Positions 7,452-25,642 of a DNA stretch of 27,413 nt are shown piece by piece; the stretch's first letter is position 1; the number at the start of each line of letters is the position of its first letter. The DNA comes from a virus (taxonomy: Duplodnaviria > Heunggongvirae > Uroviricota > Caudoviricetes), in IMG/VR virus record IMGVR_UViG_2634166457_000011; one strand, given 5' to 3'. The position numbers and the translations under genes are program-made. The notes beneath the pieces were generated by a model. The model did no database searches. It saw only the letters and a list, made by a program, of their open reading frames with translations, and was not told the origin of the DNA.

Positions 7452-9410
7452 TTACGCCGTACATTTCACCAGACCGCGGTGATCAACTGGCGCGACACCG
7501 GCGTCAATACGCACTTTCGTTGTCACGCCATCCACACTGAAGCCCTCCATCTGATCAATATATGGCGTATCCACACCGTTGAGATAAGCCACTTCAATCG
7601 TATCGGAGCCTTTTGACGCAGCCAGGTAGAAGGTGGTCTGGCTGTTATCATCAAGACGAGGCTCTGCAATAACGGTCGCAAAATCTTTCACCGGGTTAAT
7701 AATACCGGCGTTAATGTCAGCCCCCTTGACACTTGAGGAGCGAATGACCTGGTTAGCAACAGACTCCATCGCCGTCGGTACCAGTACGAACGCAGGACGA
7801 ATATTCAGATGACGCTCCCCCTCTTTCTGAACGCGCATCAACTGGCGGGCTTTATCCAGCGATGCCACGTCCATTGCAGCGCTCTCCAGTACGTTTGCAT
7901 GTTTCGCTTTATCGAACAGACTTACATTATCTGTGGAGATTTTCGGGTTAGACGTCAGAATGGCATAAACCAGATCGGCAATAGTGGATTTCGCCGCACG
8001 GCCCAGTTTCATCGGGACATCGGTCAGCATATTCAGATCATCATTGATAATGGCCTGACGGGTGATACTGAACAGCTCGCCATAGGTCGCCAGTGCAATA
8101 GTGGCCTGTTTATCTCCGGTGGTGACGTATTTATATTCCGCCCCTTCACGCACCTGACGCAGAGCACTGAAGCCCCCCATACCCACACGATGGGCAATTT
8201 TAAAATCAGACAACTGACCTTTCCGCGTCCATTGTTCATAGGTTTCAGGAGCATCTTCCCAGCCCTGCAGAATGGCTTTGTTCGCAACATCCAGCAGAAT
8301 ATTACCGAAGTCAGACGTACTGTGGGTGAACGCCGCACCGACCATCTGCATCGGGTTATAACCGGAAACCCCAATACCCCGTTCAGTCAGTGACATACGG
8401 GCATATTCACGCAGGGTCATCCCGTTGTAGACATTATCACGTTCGGTTTTTTCAAATCCGGCACGCGCCATCAGCGCCTGGCGGATCCCGTCCCCCACAA
8501 AATTACCGTTACCAGCATAAATATGAGCCGGTGTATTTTTATTGGATGGCGTGGACTCGCGCCCCATCTCGTTCAACAGCTTTTCGCGGGCCTGCTCCAG
8601 CGAACACTCAGGATCGGCAAGACACTGAGCCTGCAGCGTCTGATAACGCCCGCCAAACATGGCAAACAGATCATTAATACCGTTTACACGCGCTTTTTGC
8701 TCTGCCAGTACCTGCGCACGGATACTGTTTTCATCCACCACGGGTGCTGCTGCCTGCACTGGCGTCCGGGAGGCTGCAGGTTCATCATCCTGTACGCGTG
8801 GAGCACTGTTGCGTGGCGGAGTAATCATGTTTCGAATGGATTCCGGCATCTTTTTAAATTCCTCTGTACGTTTTGACTGAATACATGCCATTGCCTTAAC
8901 GGCTGGCGTCACCTGATCAGCAAATCCATGTGCCAGACATTCGGCACCGGACATCCAGGTCTCATCCGCCAGCATGGCAGCAATTTCATCGGTGGTTTTC
9001 CCGGTTTTCTGTGCATAAGCGGGTAACAGAACCGCCTCAACCTTATCGAGCAGGTCGGCATAGGTGCGCATGTCCTCCGCATCACCGCCCGTAAAGCCAA
9101 ATGGTTTATGAATCATCATGAAGGTGTTTTCCGGCATAATGACCGGGTTTCCCACCATCGCAATGACCGACGCCATTGACGCCGCCACACCGTCGACATA
9201 AACGGTAATGGACGCACCATGTGTTTTCAGCGCATTAAAAATGGCGATGCCTTCAAAGACATCGCCACCCGGTGAATTGATATGGAGATTAATGTGGGTG
9301 ATATCGCCCAGTGCATTCAGATCACTGATAAACTGCTTCGCTGTAACACCCCAGAAACCAATCTCGTCATAAATATAAATATCCGCGTCACTCTGGTGAC
9401 CAGCCTGCAT
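7452..9410 (-). CDS. Prohead protease (ClpP/S14-like) fused in-frame to the major capsid protein
   Basis: N-terminal region IYIYDEIGFWGVT...HINSPGGDVFEGIAIFNAL...VDGVAASMASVIAMVG is ClpP-like; about 430 C-terminal residues are capsid-like; one uninterrupted ORF. Start taken at ATG 9410, just after the portal stop; the track ORF extends to 9671 and overlaps portal. Confidence 0.8.
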   Translation of the reverse strand: MQAGHQSDADIYIYDEIGFWGVTAKQFISDLNALGDITHINLHINSPGGDVFEGIAIFNALKTHGASITVYVDGVAASMASVIAMVGNPVIMPENTFMMIHKPFGFTGGDAEDMRTYADLLDKVEAVLLPAYAQKTGKTTDEIAAMLADETWMSGAECLAHGFADQVTPAVKAMACIQSKRTEEFKKMPESIRNMITPPRNSAPRVQDDEPAASRTPVQAAAPVVDENSIRAQVLAEQKARVNGINDLFAMFGGRYQTLQAQCLADPECSLEQAREKLLNEMGRESTPSNKNTPAHIYAGNGNFVGDGIRQALMARAGFEKTERDNVYNGMTLREYARMSLTERGIGVSGYNPMQMVGAAFTHSTSDFGNILLDVANKAILQGWEDAPETYEQWTRKGQLSDFKIAHRVGMGGFSALRQVREGAEYKYVTTGDKQATIALATYGELFSITRQAIINDDLNMLTDVPMKLGRAAKSTIADLVYAILTSNPKISTDNVSLFDKAKHANVLESAAMDVASLDKARQLMRVQKEGERHLNIRPAFVLVPTAMESVANQVIRSSSVKGADINAGIINPVKDFATVIAEPRLDDNSQTTFYLAASKGSDTIEVAYLNGVDTPYIDQMEGFSVDGVTTKVRIDAGVAPVDHRGLVKCTA

Positions 9411-16050: not shown

Positions 16051-16254
16051 CATTTTCACTTTTTTAAATCCAACGACAGACGGCTGGCATTTAAGTATTG
16101 TGAAATATTATCAAATGTAATCATCATTGATTTACAAAAGATACATTTTGCCCCGAAAGGATTCATGTCAGAAACATCAAAAGATGATGTTCTATACTGG
16201 GAACCATGACAACACGGGCATCTAAAGTGAATATGGTTTGTAATATTGTCTACC

Positions 16255-16467
16255 TCAAAGCGCCACTACATGAACAGCGGCAGGACCTTTAGGTCCGTTC
16301 TCAATACCAAATTCAACTTCCTGATTCTCAGTTAATGTTTTGAAATCGTTGCTCTGAATTGCTGAGAAATGGACAAACACATCTTTGCTGCCATCTTTCG
16401 GCGTGATGAAACCAAAACCTTTTTCAGGGTTAAACCATTTCACTAAACCAGTCATTTTGTTAGACAT
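16255..16467 (-). CDS. cspI: Cold shock protein, CspA family (CspI-like)
   Basis: 70 aa, [23 protein letters not shown]...VFVHFSAI; canonical RNP1/RNP2 cold-shock domain motifs. Confidence 0.85.
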
Positions 16468-16829
16468 AATTATTACCTTTTGAAGAAATTAGCCCTTGGG
16501 CAGAATGGTCCGAAAAAAAATATCAGAGAGAAAAACCAACAAGGAAATCTCAAGAGGTACAAATAATAAAATTATAACAATGACTGCTTCAGATAAATTT
16601 GTAACAAACCAGAACACCATTAACGCATGATTAACCACCCATAGCAAGGATTACTTTTGTAAAGAAAAACACAGCAATGAAAGAATAGCTTTATTTATTA
16701 ATAAAACGTGTCATTCTGATTAAGACCTTTTATCTTACCCTTAAGATTTCAGGAATTTTGGCTCATGGAAGAGTCCTTTTTATTTAAATTTTACATTCCG
16801 CGATGTAAATGTTCCGATTTAATATTACC

Positions 16830-18857: not shown

Positions 18858-19138
18858 GAGATTGTGGTGCTTTTTGTGGGAGTCATCCACTTACGCACTT
18901 TGTTTTGCGATGCCAGCAGTTAGCTTCTGCTGTGAAACTATTCATGCAGCAAACCTGCACTTCACCACAATGGTTAGCATACTTTTCCTGATTAAGATTT
19001 TGCCAAATATGCTGGCCATTGTTTCATGTATTGGACCTCCTTACTTTTTATTAAAGAGATCCAATATTCACTACTCTGTCCGTATCTCTACTCAGGCATC
19101 AGCCTTCTTCGTTATCGTATACAGACGAGCGATGAATT

Positions 19139-19354
19139 TTAATCAGTAATGATGACATTTGCTGCTGCAGGACCTTTAGCACCACTCTCTATAGAGAAGG
19201 TAACCTTTTGACCTTCAAATAAGGTTCGATAATTATCATTCTGAATCGCAGAAAAATGCACAAACACATCTTTACTACCATCAACAGGAGAAATAAAGCC
19301 GAAACCTTTATCAGCGTTAAACCATTTTACTAAACCAGTCATTTTATTTGACAT
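19139..19354 (-). CDS. cspB: Cold shock protein, CspA family (CspB-like)
   Basis: 71 aa, [38 protein letters not shown]... Confidence 0.85.
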
Positions 19355-19894
19355 TCTACATTCCTTAACTTGAGCCTTTCGGCATAAATGGTTTGCATAA
19401 CAGAAACGACTTCGTACTTAATTGGAGAGACTCAAAGAAGGAATAAGTGAATAACACCTGAAATGAGAACTGCTTTAGTAAACTACTTCGTATATCGTCT
19501 GTTCTTCAAACCGACGCAGTCATTAACTCATAGTTGAACATATGAAGCAATGTTTATTTTAGACATCCAGCCACCTTCTACCCTATCAAAAAAGTAGTTT
19601 TCTCCAGGAACGTGTGTATGGTGCACCAGGTTATCAGTATTAAGGAGTTTTTCTGTCCCCTAAAATGACAGGAATTGTCAAAAACTTTGACTGCAAAAGC
19701 AGCAAAGGTCTTATATTCCCATCCGATGGCGTATCGATGCCCAGCTTCACGTTTCAGCTCTCAATCTTCGAGATGCAGAAGAAATTACCACAGGATTACG
19801 CGTGGAATTTTGCCGGATAAATGGTTCGCGTGGACCTTCAACTGCCAATGTTTATCCCGGGATGAGATTCAATATCTCTATTGCCCCATTTAAA

Positions 19895-22191: not shown

Positions 22192-22443
22192 TTATTCTTC
22201 TGCAAAAGCTGAAAAGCCTGCTTTTATTCCGATCTCTTTCAGTGCCTGTAATGAAGTGACAAACTCACCGTCGCGCAAGATAAATCCGTCCGTCACTCGG
22301 GCATCCACAAAATTAATTAACGCAGCCCCATTTTTTTGCAAACACACAATGCGGTAATGACTAACAATATTTCCATTTTCGACGCACACAGCATAGAGGC
22401 CATCTTCACAAAAAATTTTACGCAGTTCTTCGATGTTCATCAT
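22192..22443 (-). CDS. Hypothetical protein (83 aa; possibly Rem-like)
   Basis: MMNIEELRKIFCEDGLYAVCVENGN...; GGAAGGA SD; same length and position as K-12 Qin rem as I recall it, sequence identity not verified. Confidence 0.45.
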   Translation of the reverse strand: MMNIEELRKIFCEDGLYAVCVENGNIVSHYRIVCLQKNGAALINFVDARVTDGFILRDGEFVTSLQALKEIGIKAGFSAFAEE

Positions 22444-22570
22444 CAGAATCCTTCCGGATAATTAGCTCTCCCCTTTAAGGGACCATCCCTCTTATCCCTG
22501 CGCGCTACTTAAGTATTTTTGATTCTATTCCGGCACCGTCCAGAACTTCAAACGCGTTGAAAATAAAAAC

Positions 22571-22594
22571 AAAAACCCGCCGAAGCGGGTTAAG
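22571..22594 (-). terminator. Intrinsic terminator at the 3' end of the hok transcript
   Basis: Minus strand AACCCGCTTCGGCGGGTTTTTGTTTTT; a second strong hairpin GGCGAGGGA-GAAA-TCCCTCGCC lies at 22631..22652 just after the hok stop. Confidence 0.55.
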
Positions 22595-22659
22595 TGCGGG
22601 TGCGTTGAGGATGCCTGCCACATCAGAGGTGGCGAGGGATTTCTCCCTCGCCGGGTCTC

Positions 22660-22815
22660 TTACTCCTCAGGTTCGTAAGCTGTGAAGACAGCGACCTCCG
22701 TCTGGCCGGTTCGGATTCGTACCTCGCAGAGGTCTTTCCTCGTTACCAGTGTCGTCACTATGACGGTTAAACAGATGACGATTAGGGCGATTAACATCGC
22801 CTTTTGCTGCTTCAT
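22660..22815 (-). CDS. hokD: Hok-family type I toxin (HokD/RelF-like), 51 aa
   Basis: MKQQKAMLIALIVICLTVIVTTLVTRKDLCEVRIRTGQTEVAVFTAYEPEE; AAGGAG SD; the track ORF carries an in-frame 19-codon upstream extension. Confidence 0.85.
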   Translation of the reverse strand: MKQQKAMLIALIVICLTVIVTTLVTRKDLCEVRIRTGQTEVAVFTAYEPEE

Positions 22816-22991
22816 AGCCTGCTTCTCCTTGCCTTCCGGCACGTAAGAGGCTAACCTACATGTGTCTAGCATGAAATTGGCCTCAGATTAATGTTAAGCG
22901 TCTTGCAGGACGCGTAATGTTAACTGGGGCTTTTCTCTATCTGCCTTTGGTGTTCATGCCCGAGGCATGATAGCCTCAGGCACCAGCAGCC

Positions 22992-23020
22992 ATTCTACTT
23001 AACTCCCGTTACCTCGCCAA
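22992..23020 (-). promoter_or_regulatory. Putative hok promoter
   Basis: Minus strand TTGGCG (23020..23015), 17-nt spacer, TAGAAT (22997..22992); would give a ~170-nt leader typical of hok mRNAs. Confidence 0.5.
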
Positions 23021-23027
23021 TATGAAA

Positions 23028-23117
23028 TCAGTCAGAAAGGCGATCCATAAGAACAATAGCAAGACAATAAATTGCCATTACAGCAGCAATAGCCAGCGCA
23101 CATTTGAGAACCAGCAC
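23028..23117 (-). CDS. Candidate small hydrophobic peptide (29 aa, GTG start)
   Basis: GAGG then 5 nt then GTG; translation (M)LVLKCALAIAAVMAIYCLAIVLMDRLSD is a single transmembrane-like helix with a charged tail. Speculative. Confidence 0.2.
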   Translation of the reverse strand: MLVLKCALAIAAVMAIYCLAIVLMDRLSD

Positions 23118-23448
23118 GATAACCTCATGTATTGGACGTACACCACTCCTGATAAATATGAGGTTGTCTCGTCAGTGATTCAAGACAACTATTGGATATA
23201 GTTTCTCTGATTTTTTCTGGGGAAATGGGACTCAAGAACCAGTCACCACCAGCACTTCTTTTAATACGCAAAGTCCGACTCAAGCTAACCTTCCAGTCCG
23301 CTTTGTGCGAAGAACGGACTTATCTGTACAAGGGAACTATCCAGCAATGGAGATCACCCAAAAGAAAAAACTCCTGGCTCCCCTCGACAACCTTCATCGG
23401 GGCAATTAGCCTCAATCAACATTTTTATATCTGTCAGGTGACTTCATT

Positions 23449-24357
23449 ATGAAAAATGATATCAAAACCCTCGACCTTAACTTACTTAAGACCTTTGATG
23501 CGTTAATGGATGAGGGAAGCGTGACTCGAGCTGCGCAGCGACTCTCCCTGACGCAGCCCGCTGTCAGTGGCATGCTTATTCGATTACGTGATTATTTTTG
23601 CGATCCTCTCTTTGTTCGCACCAGTCACGGTATGGTTCCCACACTACGTGCCAAAGAACTTGCTATGCCGGTAAAACAAATTCTCACCGATATAGCTATT
23701 CTGCTGAAACCAAGTAAATTTGAACCCATGACGGCAGAACTAACTTATACCATTGTCGCAACGGACTATGCAGTTAAGGCTGTTGTTGTCCCATTGATGG
23801 CTGCGCTGAAACATCGAGCACCGAATATTAAAATCTCTGTGCGGGCTGTAGACAATAAACGAATGTATCAGCAGTTATCTCAGGGAGAAGTGGATCTGGC
23901 TTTGGTAACACCACAAACTACTCCCGGAGAGCTGCACGGCAGAGCACTTTATGAAGAAGATTATGTTTGCATAGCACGACGGAATCATCCGTTGTCAGCG
24001 AATTCAGAAATGACACTCGAACAATTTTGCAAACAGGAACATATTCTGGTGTCTTCAGAAGGTAGCTTCTCCGGTGTTACAGATGAAGCACTGGCTAAAC
24101 TCAGTCTGACACGACGAGTAGGCATGTCAGTTAATAGTTTTCAAGTAGTTCCTGATATATTGCAAGTGACTGATATGATCGCTGTTGTCCCCCGCCGCAT
24201 GGTCTTGACTAACAACGATCTGATCATACTCCCTTTGCCCCTTAAAGTTCCGGGCTTTACCAAGAGTATGGCCTGGCATGAACGAACTCATCGTGACCCT
24301 AGCCATCAGTGGATTCGGGCTTTATGCGTAGAAGTTAGCCAACATACTGGCTCCTGA
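23449..24357 (+). CDS. LysR-family transcriptional regulator
   Basis: 302 aa; N-terminal HTH LLKTFDALMDEGSVTRAAQRLSLTQPAVSGMLIRLRD; LysR substrate-binding-type C-terminal region. Confidence 0.9.
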   Translation: MKNDIKTLDLNLLKTFDALMDEGSVTRAAQRLSLTQPAVSGMLIRLRDYFCDPLFVRTSHGMVPTLRAKELAMPVKQILTDIAILLKPSKFEPMTAELTYTIVATDYAVKAVVVPLMAALKHRAPNIKISVRAVDNKRMYQQLSQGEVDLALVTPQTTPGELHGRALYEEDYVCIARRNHPLSANSEMTLEQFCKQEHILVSSEGSFSGVTDEALAKLSLTRRVGMSVNSFQVVPDILQVTDMIAVVPRRMVLTNNDLIILPLPLKVPGFTKSMAWHERTHRDPSHQWIRALCVEVSQHTGS

Positions 24358-24377
24358 TATAATTTATCTTATTAAGA

Positions 24378-24405
24378 TTATAAGTAATCACAATTCGTCT
24401 TATAA
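24378..24405 (+). promoter_or_regulatory. Inverted repeat TTATAAG-N14-CTTATAA upstream of the SRPBCC gene (candidate LysR-type binding site)
   Basis: Perfect 7-bp arms at 24378..24384 and 24399..24405; candidate -10 TACAAT at 24463..24468. Confidence 0.4.
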
Positions 24406-24492
24406 CTTCATTGCGCTAATAATCACTGCCATCGTGTTGCGGCCGTAACGCAGCAAACCCAGTACAATTAACTACCGCAATTGGAGACATTT

Positions 24493-24999
24493 ATGAACGC
24501 TATTCACTGGCCAGAAGGCTTTGTTCCGGGATTTACTGATAACTTTGTTTCTAATGAAATGATCATATCCGGCCTGAACGTCAATGATGTTTGGCCACTC
24601 CTTAGTCAGCCATTGCTATGGCCGGAATACTATAAAAATTCAGCAGATGTGCGCTTTTATAACAATAAAGGTCCGGATCTGGAAAATGGAGTGCGCTTTT
24701 ACTTCAGCACATTTGGATTTCCGGTTGAAGCTCAGGTCGTGGAATTTATTCCACCTGTTGAAGGTAAACCTGCTCGTTTGGCATGGCACGGATGGTCAGG
24801 TGAAAAAGATACTGTTCAACGCCTCGATGTTCATCATGCGTGGCTACTGGAGGAACTCTCGGGTAACAGACTCCGTATCCTGACGCAGGAAACGCAGAAC
24901 GGAGTTCCGGCAAAAAAACTGGCAAATACTCGTCCGAACCCAATGCTCAATGGTCACCAGGAGTGGCTTGACGGCCTGATTCTGGCTGCAAAGAAATAA
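24493..24999 (+). CDS. SRPBCC-superfamily (polyketide cyclase/START-like) protein
   Basis: 168 aa from the ATG at 24493 (GGAG SD); sequence resembles small ligand-binding SRPBCC proteins; recalled, not searched. Confidence 0.6.
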   Translation: MNAIHWPEGFVPGFTDNFVSNEMIISGLNVNDVWPLLSQPLLWPEYYKNSADVRFYNNKGPDLENGVRFYFSTFGFPVEAQVVEFIPPVEGKPARLAWHGWSGEKDTVQRLDVHHAWLLEELSGNRLRILTQETQNGVPAKKLANTRPNPMLNGHQEWLDGLILAAKK

Positions 25000-25228
25000 T
25001 TACTACTTTTGCAGAAAAGTATCACTGCGGTTACATTTTCCCCAACATCCTCATAATATTTTCATCTTTACTATTGAACTTGAGCACAGGTAAATCCTGT
25101 GCTCCTCTCTAAGTGACAGCGCATGGCCATATTTGCAAATGCCGTTTCTGGCACAAAGCAAACTACCACGCTAGCTCTACCCTGCACCATGAAAATGTCA
25201 ATTCGCATCTGAACTAATACTCTTTAAT

Positions 25229-25642
25229 CTAGTAAATAACATTTCCCTGATAAAATGCCAGGATGCGCTGCATAACTTCGCTCTTCCGGCACTCGCGACA
25301 GATTATGTTTAGACGACTGTCGTAGCGACGTATTTCTCCGTCAGGTAATAACCAGATAAGGTCCGGATCAACCACAGCAGGTTTCTTCACCTTTGCCCTC
25401 GAGAGTTTTTTGCGGGCGTTTTGCCAGTCCTTACGCGCCTGTTCAGAGGGGAATAACCCGTAGCCGGAGTTGTATACATCGCCACTAGCAACCAGCTCTC
25501 TGGCAAGAACGCTCATCAGATATCTTGTCGCACCTGTTTTAGCTTCCAGTTGCCGTAACGTCTCTCGACCGCTCTGGCGCACGAGTTCCACCACCTGCCC
25601 TTTAATTTTTTCCCGCTCTTCTTGTGTAAAAACTTTTGCCAC
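25229..25642 (-). CDS. Hypothetical protein (137 aa) downstream of the replication initiator; possible winged-helix plus C-terminal CxxC
   Basis: GTG start with AAGGGGGA SD; sits where a helicase loader would be expected but is far too small for one. Confidence 0.45.
   Translation of the reverse strand: MAKVFTQEEREKIKGQVVELVRQSGRETLRQLEAKTGATRYLMSVLARELVASGDVYNSGYGLFPSEQARKDWQNARKKLSRAKVKKPAVVDPDLIWLLPDGEIRRYDSRLNIICRECRKSEVMQRILAFYQGNVIY

Follow-up and report, generated by a model that had tools for sequence, protein, structure and literature searches.

The hok locus in the stretch of viral DNA analysed here (IMG/VR record IMGVR_UViG_2634166457_000011, 27,413 nucleotides, hereafter the window) is very probably a complete hok/mok/sok type I toxin-antitoxin module of the hokW/hokD subfamily, carried by a Qin-like lambdoid prophage and working by the R1/Sp5-type mechanism. 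The module spans 23020..22564 on the minus strand (Table 1) and occupies the prophage's early-right (replication to Q) region, where the gene order hok-rem-ydfU-Q is the same as in K-12 Qin. Its leader matches the full length of Rfam model RF01794 (22985..22810, minus strand, model positions 1–157 of 157, 94.7 bits against a gathering score of 59, E = 2e-20). Together with the fold of the predicted 418-nt transcript (MFE −162.5 kcal/mol, z = −6.4), this match indicates more than a chance resemblance. The module itself is already known. Annotation of hokW-sokW, its subfamily, dates from around 2000 and the experimental test from 2021. The locus is of little consequence in itself; it belongs to one of the best-studied RNA-regulated toxin systems. 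Annotation precedents for near-identical loci include mokW/hokW/sokW in VT2-Sakai, a "MokW-like" entry in phage HannyBb, whose locus is 98% identical to that of the window, and hokD as assigned by PGAP.

Components of the hok locus

Table 1. Positions of the features in and around the hok locus, numbered along the window.
Feature	Position	Strand	Basis
hok/mok promoter	-35 TTGGCG 23020-23015, 17-nt spacer, -10 TAGAAT 22997-22992	(-)	Consensus scan
Full-length hok mRNA (predicted), about 417-418 nt	22985..22568	(-)	Fold and Rfam RF01794
tac, translational activator element, GGUGCCUGAGGC	22973..22984	(-)	Pairs with fbi in MFE
ucb, mok anti-SD AGCCCC	22931..22926	(-)	Homologous to R1 A70-C75 (PMC9841398)
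mok SD GAGG	22884..22881	(-)	8 nt ahead of mok ATG; homologous to R1 G105-G108
mok reading frame, 70 codons, in frame with hok	22872..22660	(-)	ORF list
dcb-like box GCCUC, complementary to mok SD	22851..22847	(-)	Homology and scheme in PMC9841398
hok SD AAGGAG	22830..22825	(-)	9 nt ahead of hok ATG
hok toxin ORF, 51 aa	22815..22660	(-)	Pfam PF01848 and alignment
Post-stop hairpin, GGCGAGGGA GAAA UCCCUCGCC	22652..22631	(-)	Contained in all folds
fbi, fold-back inhibitory element, CCUCAACGCACC	22599..22610	(-)	Pairs with tac
Intrinsic terminator of hok mRNA, AACCCGC UUCG GCGGGUU and U-run	22591..22564	(-)	Terminator scan and fold
Sok promoter (putative)	-35 TTGCCT 22829-22834, 17-nt spacer, -10 TAACCT 22852-22857	(+)	Homology to sokW
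Sok antisense RNA (putative), 71 nt	22864..22934	(+)	One-to-one with annotated sokW misc_RNA of AP000422
LysR gene, upstream of hok locus	23449..24357	(+)	

A Pfam search matched the hok ORF to HOK_GEF (PF01848) over profile positions 1–42 of 42 (E = 1.3e-23), and NCBIfam matched it to the Hok family with a score under the curated cut-off. As is characteristic of the family, the product is hydrophobic, about 50 aa long and carries the TRK-LCE and EVA-F motifs; the invariant columns that it shares with HokW, HokC and R1 Hok are C15, T25-R26-K27, L29-C30-E31, E40-V41-A42, F44 and Y47-E48. An earlier note, made from the sequence alone, had described a HokD/RelF-like toxin with a strong SD, a near-consensus promoter some 170 nt upstream, a hairpin right after the stop codon and an intrinsic terminator, and each of these was recovered. 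Hok is one residue away from K-12 HokD, and the promoter -10 ends 177 nt upstream of the hok ATG. This promoter is the only sigma-70-like match upstream of hok in a scan of 22400..23500 (a second match lies downstream of the hok terminator, ahead of rem); its -10 is invariant in four aligned relatives, and its placement relative to the GGYGC 5′ end agrees with that of the R1 promoter. By homology with the R1 +1 position, the hok mRNA would start at G22984, and its 3′ end was placed in the terminator T-run. The post-stop hairpin begins 8 nt past the stop codon and shows one compensatory change (A-U to G-C) in relatives, and the terminator stem spans 22591..22574, with the T-run directly after it.

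The surroundings also agree with what had been described, with a LysR gene beyond the locus on the opposite strand and relBE absent upstream: tblastn across the whole window returned neither relB nor relE (best E = 4). The arrangement of LysR and polyketide-cyclase/SRPBCC beside hokD is also present in E. coli A36. PADLOC gave no defence-system match for Mok-Hok, the LysR or SRPBCC cargo, DUF977 or DUF968.

At the sequence level, the locus has a Sok antisense gene that overlaps the mok start codon and SD and is equipped with a promoter and terminator of its own. Its RNA is predicted to have a single-stranded 5′ tail and, ahead of a closing UUUU, a long terminator hairpin (fold −30.3 kcal/mol, z = −5.5). 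Compared with sokW, 7 of 71 positions differ, one in the hairpin loop and six in the first 16 nt, which makes cross-repression between the two doubtful. Both promoter hexamers are identical to those of sokW. A generic sigma-70 scan missed this promoter (under threshold) because TAACCT matches only three of six consensus positions, and it was placed by homology. In sokW, mutating the -10 from TAACCT to GAGCCG (primer YO-421) led to loss of antitoxin activity (PMC8621323). The earlier expectation of a Sok RNA on the plus strand was therefore right as to strand, but the position shifts from the anticipated 22870..22980 to 22864..22934, with the promoter further left at 22829..22857. The RF01794 match does not place the Sok gene, because this "sok" model reports the hok-sense strand, as it also does in K-12 hokC/sokC, VT2-Sakai hokW and the R1-type plasmid locus. 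Rfam also matched the 3′ UTR to isrK (25.7 bits, gathering score 50) and rsmX (21.5 bits, gathering score 56), and the leader to ceN48 and fungal SRP; all of these scores lie far under gathering, and the matches, attributed to the two 3′ hairpins, were rejected.

The RNA switch and private changes in tac

RNA folding of the leader had been proposed as a check; the full-length mRNA gave a closed fold with tac-fbi pairing. In the MFE structure the pairs are 2-6:383-387 and 8-12:376-380, with ensemble probabilities of at least 0.97. The pairing covaries: among 59 unique loci (Escherichia, Photorhabdus, Kluyvera, Sodalis, Mixta and plasmids), position 3 of tac forms a U:A pair with its fbi partner in 26 and a C:G pair in 25, and the fbi duplex energy across the family is −17.3 with its own tac versus −15.1 for cross pairs. 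The scheme by which tac, fbi, ucb and dcb act as a switch is summarised in PMC9841398. In the predicted closed fold, the mok SD is held by ucb (GCC 22930-22928 pairs with GGC 22882-22880, and CAG with CUG), and sequestration extends to the mok AUG and to the SD and AUG of hok. GCCUC is assigned as a dcb-like box by homology. A further closed-fold helix joins CUCUUAC (22849-22843) to GUAAGAG (22663-22657) across the hok stop codon (MFE helix 137-143:323-329), a pairing kept and covarying in relatives. We dropped GCCUCUUAC/GUAAGAG as a "ucb-dcb" pair, since R1 numbering and PMC9841398 put ucb at AGCCCC and the dcb-like box at GCCUC; the helix is left without a name, as one more of the closed form's conserved long-range pairings. 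In unconstrained folds of the 3′-truncated mRNA, the tac-ucb open form never appeared and the MFE structure was a local 5′ hairpin; open and closed forms were compared by constrained folds only.

By homology with R1 hok/sok and Sp5 hokW-sokW, the module would work as follows. A constitutive promoter would yield a stable mRNA of about 417 nt whose 5′ tac pairs with the 3′ fbi. In this closed form ucb would hold the mok SD, the hok SD and AUG would pair to the coding region's 3′ part, there would be no translation, and Sok would be unable to bind. Slow 3′ trimming would strip off fbi, allowing tac to pair with ucb and freeing the mok SD, and translation of mok, in frame with hok, would open the hok start so that the membrane toxin is made. 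The unstable 71-nt Sok, transcribed from TTGCCT-17-TAACCT within mok, would normally stop this by pairing with the mok start region and setting off decay of the mRNA. Once Sok synthesis ends, through prophage loss or through induction as shown for sokW, Hok would depolarise the inner membrane. In prophages, such a module may serve maintenance, lysis timing or phage exclusion. The relatives provide experimental background for this scheme: HokW is toxic and sokW counteracts the toxicity (Takada et al. [quoted passage not shown]

The tac element of this copy carries a substitution, U6->C (22979), that is private to it: U occupies this position in all 60 other loci, although the search pattern permitted C. 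Two further private changes lie nearby: position −1 (22985) has T in place of G, and an extra A (A17, at 22968) is inserted in the adjacent stem, where it would be bulged. The earlier note missed these substitutions, which raise the opposite possibility of a silenced copy. The nearest leader is that of Escherichia ruysiae; only five differences separate the transcript from its nearest relative, three of them within 18 nt (clustering chance about 0.04). The 30/31-mer that holds the variant has no exact match in 5426 E. coli genomes, viral contigs or metagenome contigs, and the leader scores 94.7 bits against RF01794 where hokW scores 113.5. Neither ucb nor fbi carries a compensating change, and U6->C is predicted to place a C-A mismatch in the tac-ucb open form. 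In constrained folds that take U6->C and A17 together, the open-minus-closed gap is about +11 kcal/mol, versus +1.2 to +4.7 kcal/mol with the consensus restored, and the 5′ metastable hairpin is stabilised (−21.9 here, −18.8 with the consensus restored).

In R1, every substitution of G4, C5 or T6 leads to loss of toxicity. T6C, recovered there as a loss-of-function suppressor, abolishes it while full-length and truncated RNAs are still produced, and A70T, in the tac pairing partner, is also a loss-of-function change (PMC9841398). As U6->C is the equivalent of R1 T6C, this allele may be translationally locked. The tac changes would then keep the processed mRNA closed, so that no Hok is ever made, and the locus would be a relic in decay, as other chromosomal hok loci are. 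We take this reading seriously, although we hold it to be somewhat short of probable, and grade in the same way the broader statement that this copy is attenuated or silenced. Several points weigh against silencing. The R1 data come from a different subfamily and from a Sok-less selection for survival, in which partial attenuation would be selected as well. In the window, tac-fbi pairing still has a probability of at least 0.97, the simple duplex energy of tac versus downstream sequence is unchanged, the ORFs, both promoters, Sok and the terminator are intact, and further signs of decay are absent. A sequencing or assembly error could also account for the three clustered positions. A silenced module differs from the complete R1/Sp5-type module that we favour solely in its present-day activity. 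If the locked allele is real, it would be an intact-looking but untranslatable toxin gene in a prophage and a field example of RNA-switch mutations hitherto known only from laboratory selections, hinting that silencing of prophage hok loci hits the switch by point changes rather than the ORF. This copy is in any case a natural test of whether tac U6 is as critical in prophage hok loci as in R1.

The mok frame

The 19-codon upstream extension, which had been proposed as a mok-like coupling frame, begins at an ATG at 22872 and is homologous to MokW and MokC. The frame reads as the extension MLDTCRLASYVPEGKEKQA followed by Hok, and its 70 residues share 90% identity with annotated MokW and 71% with K-12 MokC, both of which are in frame with their own hok. 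Family-wide, the mok ATG is mostly offset from hok by 56–58 nt, with 48 or 60 nt in three loci; in 36 of 61 unique loci, as well as in this copy, mok is in frame and stop-free with its ATG 57 nt upstream (48 or 60 nt in three). Ribosomes starting at such a mok must make an N-terminally extended Hok, and the extension is moderately conserved among MokW, MokC and the window, so that a 70-aa Mok-Hok fusion could be conceived as an active toxin or second isoform and not just a coupling device. We consider this unlikely. The frame relative to hok varies, with offsets of 56, 57 and 58 nt sometimes occurring among close relatives, which argues that the act of translating mok matters and not its product, and the 51-aa HokW is toxic by itself (PMC8621323).

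Relation to K-12 hokD and other hok systems

The stand-alone locus had been presented as a departure from the K-12 Qin norm, in which hokD (relF) is the third gene of relBEF. The distribution in E. coli reverses this picture. Of 5426 complete E. coli genomes, 4284 carry the leader (at 8829 places) and 1166 the relE-hokD junction, making the stand-alone form about 3.7 times commoner than the relE-linked form. The leader and Sok gene are unannotated at every E. coli genome match among the matches listed, and the best E. coli match over 3.6 kb is 95–97% identical. The proposed synteny comparison with Qin showed the shared rem-ydfU-Q order downstream. Over the part that runs from window position 22829, a little ahead of the hok ATG, through the terminator and into the start of rem, the window is 99.2% identical to K-12 Qin, and Hok differs at one residue (A22T, Thr22 here). 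Upstream the two part: homology begins only 13–14 nt before the hok ATG, K-12 has relE directly upstream and lacks the hok promoter, tac, ucb, mok start and Sok gene, and K-12 relBE-hokD has no RF01794 match. The window instead has a complete module, with leader, mok and Sok present and both relBE and the K-12 junction absent, and is not a member of a relBEF operon.

As judged from this comparison, K-12 hokD is a 5′-truncated derivative: relBE took the place of all that lay upstream of the hok SD. It is very improbable that the window instead holds a newly independent hokD, an unusual variant of K-12 relBEF that lost relBE or never had it: the 99.2% identity, the Qin-like hok-rem-ydfU-Q order and the absence of relBE would fit, but leader, mok and Sok have homologues in hokW, hokC and R1 and are therefore ancestral, not newly acquired, K-12 is without them, and the stand-alone form is both commoner (about 3.7 times) and annotated in phages since VT2-Sakai/933W. 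The K-12 reference is thus misleading, as hokD there is a truncated relic whereas most E. coli genomes hold the complete module. The toxicity of K-12 HokD, one residue from the Hok of the window, has been shown (bioRxiv 10.1101/2025.08.07.668861).

Among the closest known systems is hokW-mokW-sokW of the Stx2 phage Sp5/VT2-Sakai/933W (AP000422), which is 92.3% identical in DNA over the locus. It encodes a 51-aa Hok (90% identical) and an in-frame 70-aa MokW (17 of 19 extension residues identical), its 71-nt sokW has the same position, -35/-10 hexamers and extended terminator hairpin, and it shares the fbi sequence and a location in a lambdoid prophage. It differs in the first 16 nt of Sok (six positions) and in the terminator region, and occupies another site in the phage genome, with different neighbours and without downstream rem/ydfU; the window alone carries U6->C, the inserted A17 and G->T at −1. 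The hokC/mokC/sokC (gef) locus of K-12 has the same architecture, with an in-frame 69-aa MokC, an annotated sokC overlapping the mok start, a Hok that is 80% identical, an identical consensus tac (GGGUGCUUGAGGC) and, in intact relatives, a GCACCC-type fbi. Unlike the locus studied here, it is core-chromosomal rather than prophage-borne, its Sok hairpin is shorter and lacks the 16-nt extension of the hokW/hokD type, and in K-12 an IS186 interrupts the locus downstream of the hok stop, so that the fbi region is lost. The archetype, hok/mok/sok (parB) of plasmid R1, has the same order of promoter, tac, ucb, mok SD, mok, dcb, hok, post-stop hairpin, fbi and terminator; it gives a full-length RF01794 match, and the R1-type Sok promoter lies in the same place (TTGCGC-17-TATCCT). 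In contrast to the window, its Hok is just 45% identical, tac/fbi read GGCGC/GCGCC versus GGUGC/GCACC here (a compensated pair), mok in classical R1 is offset by 58 nt (+1 frame) rather than in frame, and the locus is plasmid-borne and acts in post-segregational killing.

Composition of the hok locus

The 51-aa product of the hok ORF is a Hok/Gef toxin (PF01848, E=1.3e-23) that lies one residue apart from K-12 HokD. An earlier note had proposed a stand-alone hok with its own promoter, post-stop hairpin and terminator; each of these elements is present at the sequence level (see table), and the absence of relBE was confirmed, with neither relB nor relE detectable across the whole window. A full-length match to RF01794 ('sok') covered 22985..22810 (94.7 bits, E=2e-20; gathering score 59). 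The same model matched the hokC strand in K-12, opposite the annotated sokC, and the hokW strand in phage VT2-Sakai (AP000422), opposite the annotated sokW. It also matched an R1-type plasmid locus, and gave no match in K-12 relB-relE-hokD. Because these matches fall on hok-sense strands, the model represents the leader of hok mRNA, and this leader is present in the window. RF01794, though named 'sok antitoxin', is a hok-sense model ending at the hok AUG, and its matches locate the hok leader without giving the strand or extent of Sok RNA (comparison loci L005, L002 and L006).

The VT2-Sakai locus is 92.3% identical to that of the window, and its record annotates mokW (70 aa), hokW (51 aa) and the sokW antisense RNA; mokW and hokW share one stop codon and are hence in frame. 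Phage HannyBb, with 98% identity over the locus, has the frame annotated as 'MokW-like host killing protein'. The predicted Sok carries seven mismatches to sokW, of which six lie within the first 16 nt and one in the loop of the hairpin; its predicted fold (-30.3 kcal/mol, z=-5.5) leaves the 5' tail free and forms a long hairpin with UUUU after it. Both promoter hexamers are the same as those of sokW, in which the 'pro-less' primer YO-421 turns TAACCT into GAGCCG and protection against HokW is gone (Takada et al. 2021, PMC8621323). The window locus is a complete hok/mok/sok module.

Features of the hok/mok/sok locus (tac, translational activator element at the mRNA 5' end; fbi, 3' fold-back inhibitory element; ucb, mok anti-SD)
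Feature	Position	Strand	Basis
hok/mok promoter, sigma-70-type	TTGGCG 23020-23015, 17-nt spacer, TAGAAT 22997-22992	-	promoter scan
hok leader	~170 nt	-	
mok-hok ORF, 70 codons	ATG 22872, stop at 22660	-	ORF list
hok ORF, 51 codons	ATG 22815, stop at 22660; in frame inside the 70-codon ORF	-	ORF list
Post-stop hairpin, perfect 9 bp	22652..22631, 8 nt past the hok stop codon	-	
Intrinsic terminator	stem 22591..22574, then T-run	-	
Predicted Sok RNA, 71 nt	22864..22934	+	base-for-base transfer from sokW
Predicted Sok promoter	TTGCCT 22829-22834, 17-nt spacer, TAACCT 22852-22857	+	identity to sokW hexamers
tac-fbi pairing, part 1	GGUGC 22984-22980 with GCACC 22603-22599	-	MFE
tac-fbi pairing, part 2	UGAGG 22978-22974 with CCUCA 22610-22606	-	MFE
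mok SD held by ucb	AGCCCC 22931-22926 with GAGG 22884-22881	-	MFE
mok AUG pairing	with GGCAU 22615-22611	-	MFE
hok SD and AUG pairing	with 3' part of coding region	-	MFE
Pairing spanning the hok stop codon	CUCUUAC 22849-22843 with GUAAGAG	-	MFE
Private differences	22985 G->T; 22979 U->C; inserted A 22968; 22783 synonymous; 22752 Ala22Thr	-	

RNA switch and mok frame

The 418-nt hok transcript has a predicted MFE of -162.5 kcal/mol (z=-6.4), with tac-fbi pair probabilities of at least 0.97 in the ensemble. Covariation was examined in 80 loci from contigs (one genome per species), the window and four fetched references (VT2-Sakai, HannyBb, a Rac-like phage and an R1-type plasmid), of which 59 unique loci were analysable for tac-fbi after unusable loci and duplicates were dropped. 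The third tac position covaries with its fbi partner (U:A in 26, C:G in 25, four exceptions, four not found), longer compensated variants exist (e.g. CUCUGGAU with GAUCCAUGAG in Mixta and Sodalis), and the fbi always lies ~50–65 nt beyond the hok stop codon. The folds of the window and the family reproduce the known hok-family RNA-switch design (summarised in PMC9841398). Within the coding region, Hok codons 47-48 (UAC GAA within CUUACGAA, 22677..22672, minus strand) place the Tyr47 codon inside a UACG motif with likeness to the tRNA-Arg2 anticodon loop; with one exception, the 59 loci all keep UACGAA.

The suggestion that the 19-codon upstream extension (MLDTCRLASYVPEGKEKQA) is a mok-like frame also held: it is identical to MokW at 17 of 19 positions and aligns with K-12 MokC, which is likewise in frame with hokC. 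The distance from the mok ATG to the downstream hok is 56, 57 or 58 nt in most of the 61 unique family loci, and the mok frame relative to hok is therefore not conserved. Such variation fits mok acting through translational coupling rather than through the protein it encodes.

Private changes in the tac element

Only five differences separate the window transcript from its nearest relative (Escherichia ruysiae, L011), all private to the window among six relatives compared. Three of them are confined to an 18-nt stretch at the 5' end (chance of such clustering ~0.04). These changes (22985, 22979 and 22968) sit in an otherwise invariant tac/metastable-hairpin element, and 22979 corresponds to tac position 6, which is U in all 60 other loci. 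In R1 hok (numbering checked on an R1-type sequence), every G4, C5 or T6 substitution abolished toxicity, both RNA forms were still made with T6C, and A70T, a change in the pairing partner, was likewise loss-of-function (PMC9841398). No compensating change was found in the window ucb or fbi. In constrained folds of the window copy, the closed form was favoured over the open (tac-ucb) form by 11 kcal/mol, compared with 1.2–4.7 kcal/mol when the consensus was restored, and the 5' metastable hairpin of the window is 3 kcal/mol stabler. The private 5' variant was absent from 5426 E. coli genomes, viral contigs and metagenome contigs. Sequencing error is an alternative source of the 5' changes; taken together, the private tac changes, R1 precedent, fold energies and absence of the variant elsewhere tentatively suggest that the window copy is attenuated or silenced, a reading to which we give somewhat less than even weight.

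Distribution, prophage setting and known relatives

The earlier note treated a stand-alone hok as a departure from the K-12 Qin norm, which was reversed by the comparison: the leader alone (22830-23020) occurs in 4284 of 5426 complete E. coli genomes (8829 places, median 2 per genome, maximum 9), versus 1166 genomes with the relE-hokD junction. Alignment of K-12 hokD with the window starts only at AGGAGAAGCAGGCT-ATG, and everything further upstream is relE. Together with the genome counts, this indicates that stand-alone hok is the norm and the older arrangement, with K-12 hokD as the truncated exception. PGAP gives the name hokD to every leader and junction copy; under every E. coli match listed, neither the leader nor Sok is annotated. 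Enrichment of hok in prophages has been described (bioRxiv 10.1101/2025.08.07.668861).

Two loci with R1-like Hok, L080 (Escherichia sp. ESNIH1) and L084 (Pseudescherichia MAG), carry the K-12 hokD junction motif CACTTCTGCTTTGCGTTGACAGGAGAAG ~40 nt upstream of hok, with unrelated sequence beyond it; from this motif, the short relE-hokD segment in K-12 may be what is left of another hok leader. Near-identical E. coli-type or R1-type loci were also present on short contigs assigned to non-enterobacterial genomes (L012, Veillonella MAG; L034, Xanthomonas pisi; L027, Acinetobacter idrijaensis; L068, Streptomyces morookaense; L067; L069), most likely through contamination or mis-binning.

E. coli A36 and a small number of further strains share the exact gene context of the window, with replication genes and DUF977, then on the opposite strand SRPBCC/polyketide cyclase and LysR, and then hokD and DUF968. 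Cargo varies among E. coli prophages in the slot from the DUF977 gene (25642..25229, minus strand) to hok (22999..25228): LysR and SRPBCC/polyketide cyclase in the window and A36; retron Ec67 RT/endonuclease, a DUF4209 protein or a DUF262 protein in other strains; and flxA-ydfV-relBE in K-12. The slot bounded by hok has the look of a hot spot for cargo or defence. Directly upstream of the hok promoter, ~290 bp (23030..23318) are conserved in 765 genomes, with no gene annotation among the matches listed. Past the hok terminator, a second promoter-like site (TTGAAG-18-TAGAAT, 22551..22522, minus strand), ~80 nt upstream of rem (22443..22192), may be the rem promoter. Two full-length RF01766 (cspA thermoregulator) matches on the minus strand (19515..19123, 158.8 bits; 16613..16228, 112.8 bits) indicate putative cold-shock-protein genes flanking the prophage lysis module, like cspB/cspF/cspI in Qin.

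By homology, the window locus would work by the classical hok/sok scheme. The best evidence for a prophage setting comes from hokW-sokW: HokW is toxic and destined for the inner membrane, sokW protects against it, mitomycin C removes sokW and induces HokW in a way that depends on RecA, and deletion of the hokW-sokW locus halved phage release (PMC8621323). Since hok, the replication genes and Q share one strand, early-right transcription after induction would oppose the Sok promoter and could account for Sok loss. The window locus is real but ordinary: it belongs to the hokW/hokD subfamily of hok/sok, which is already known and has been characterised experimentally.
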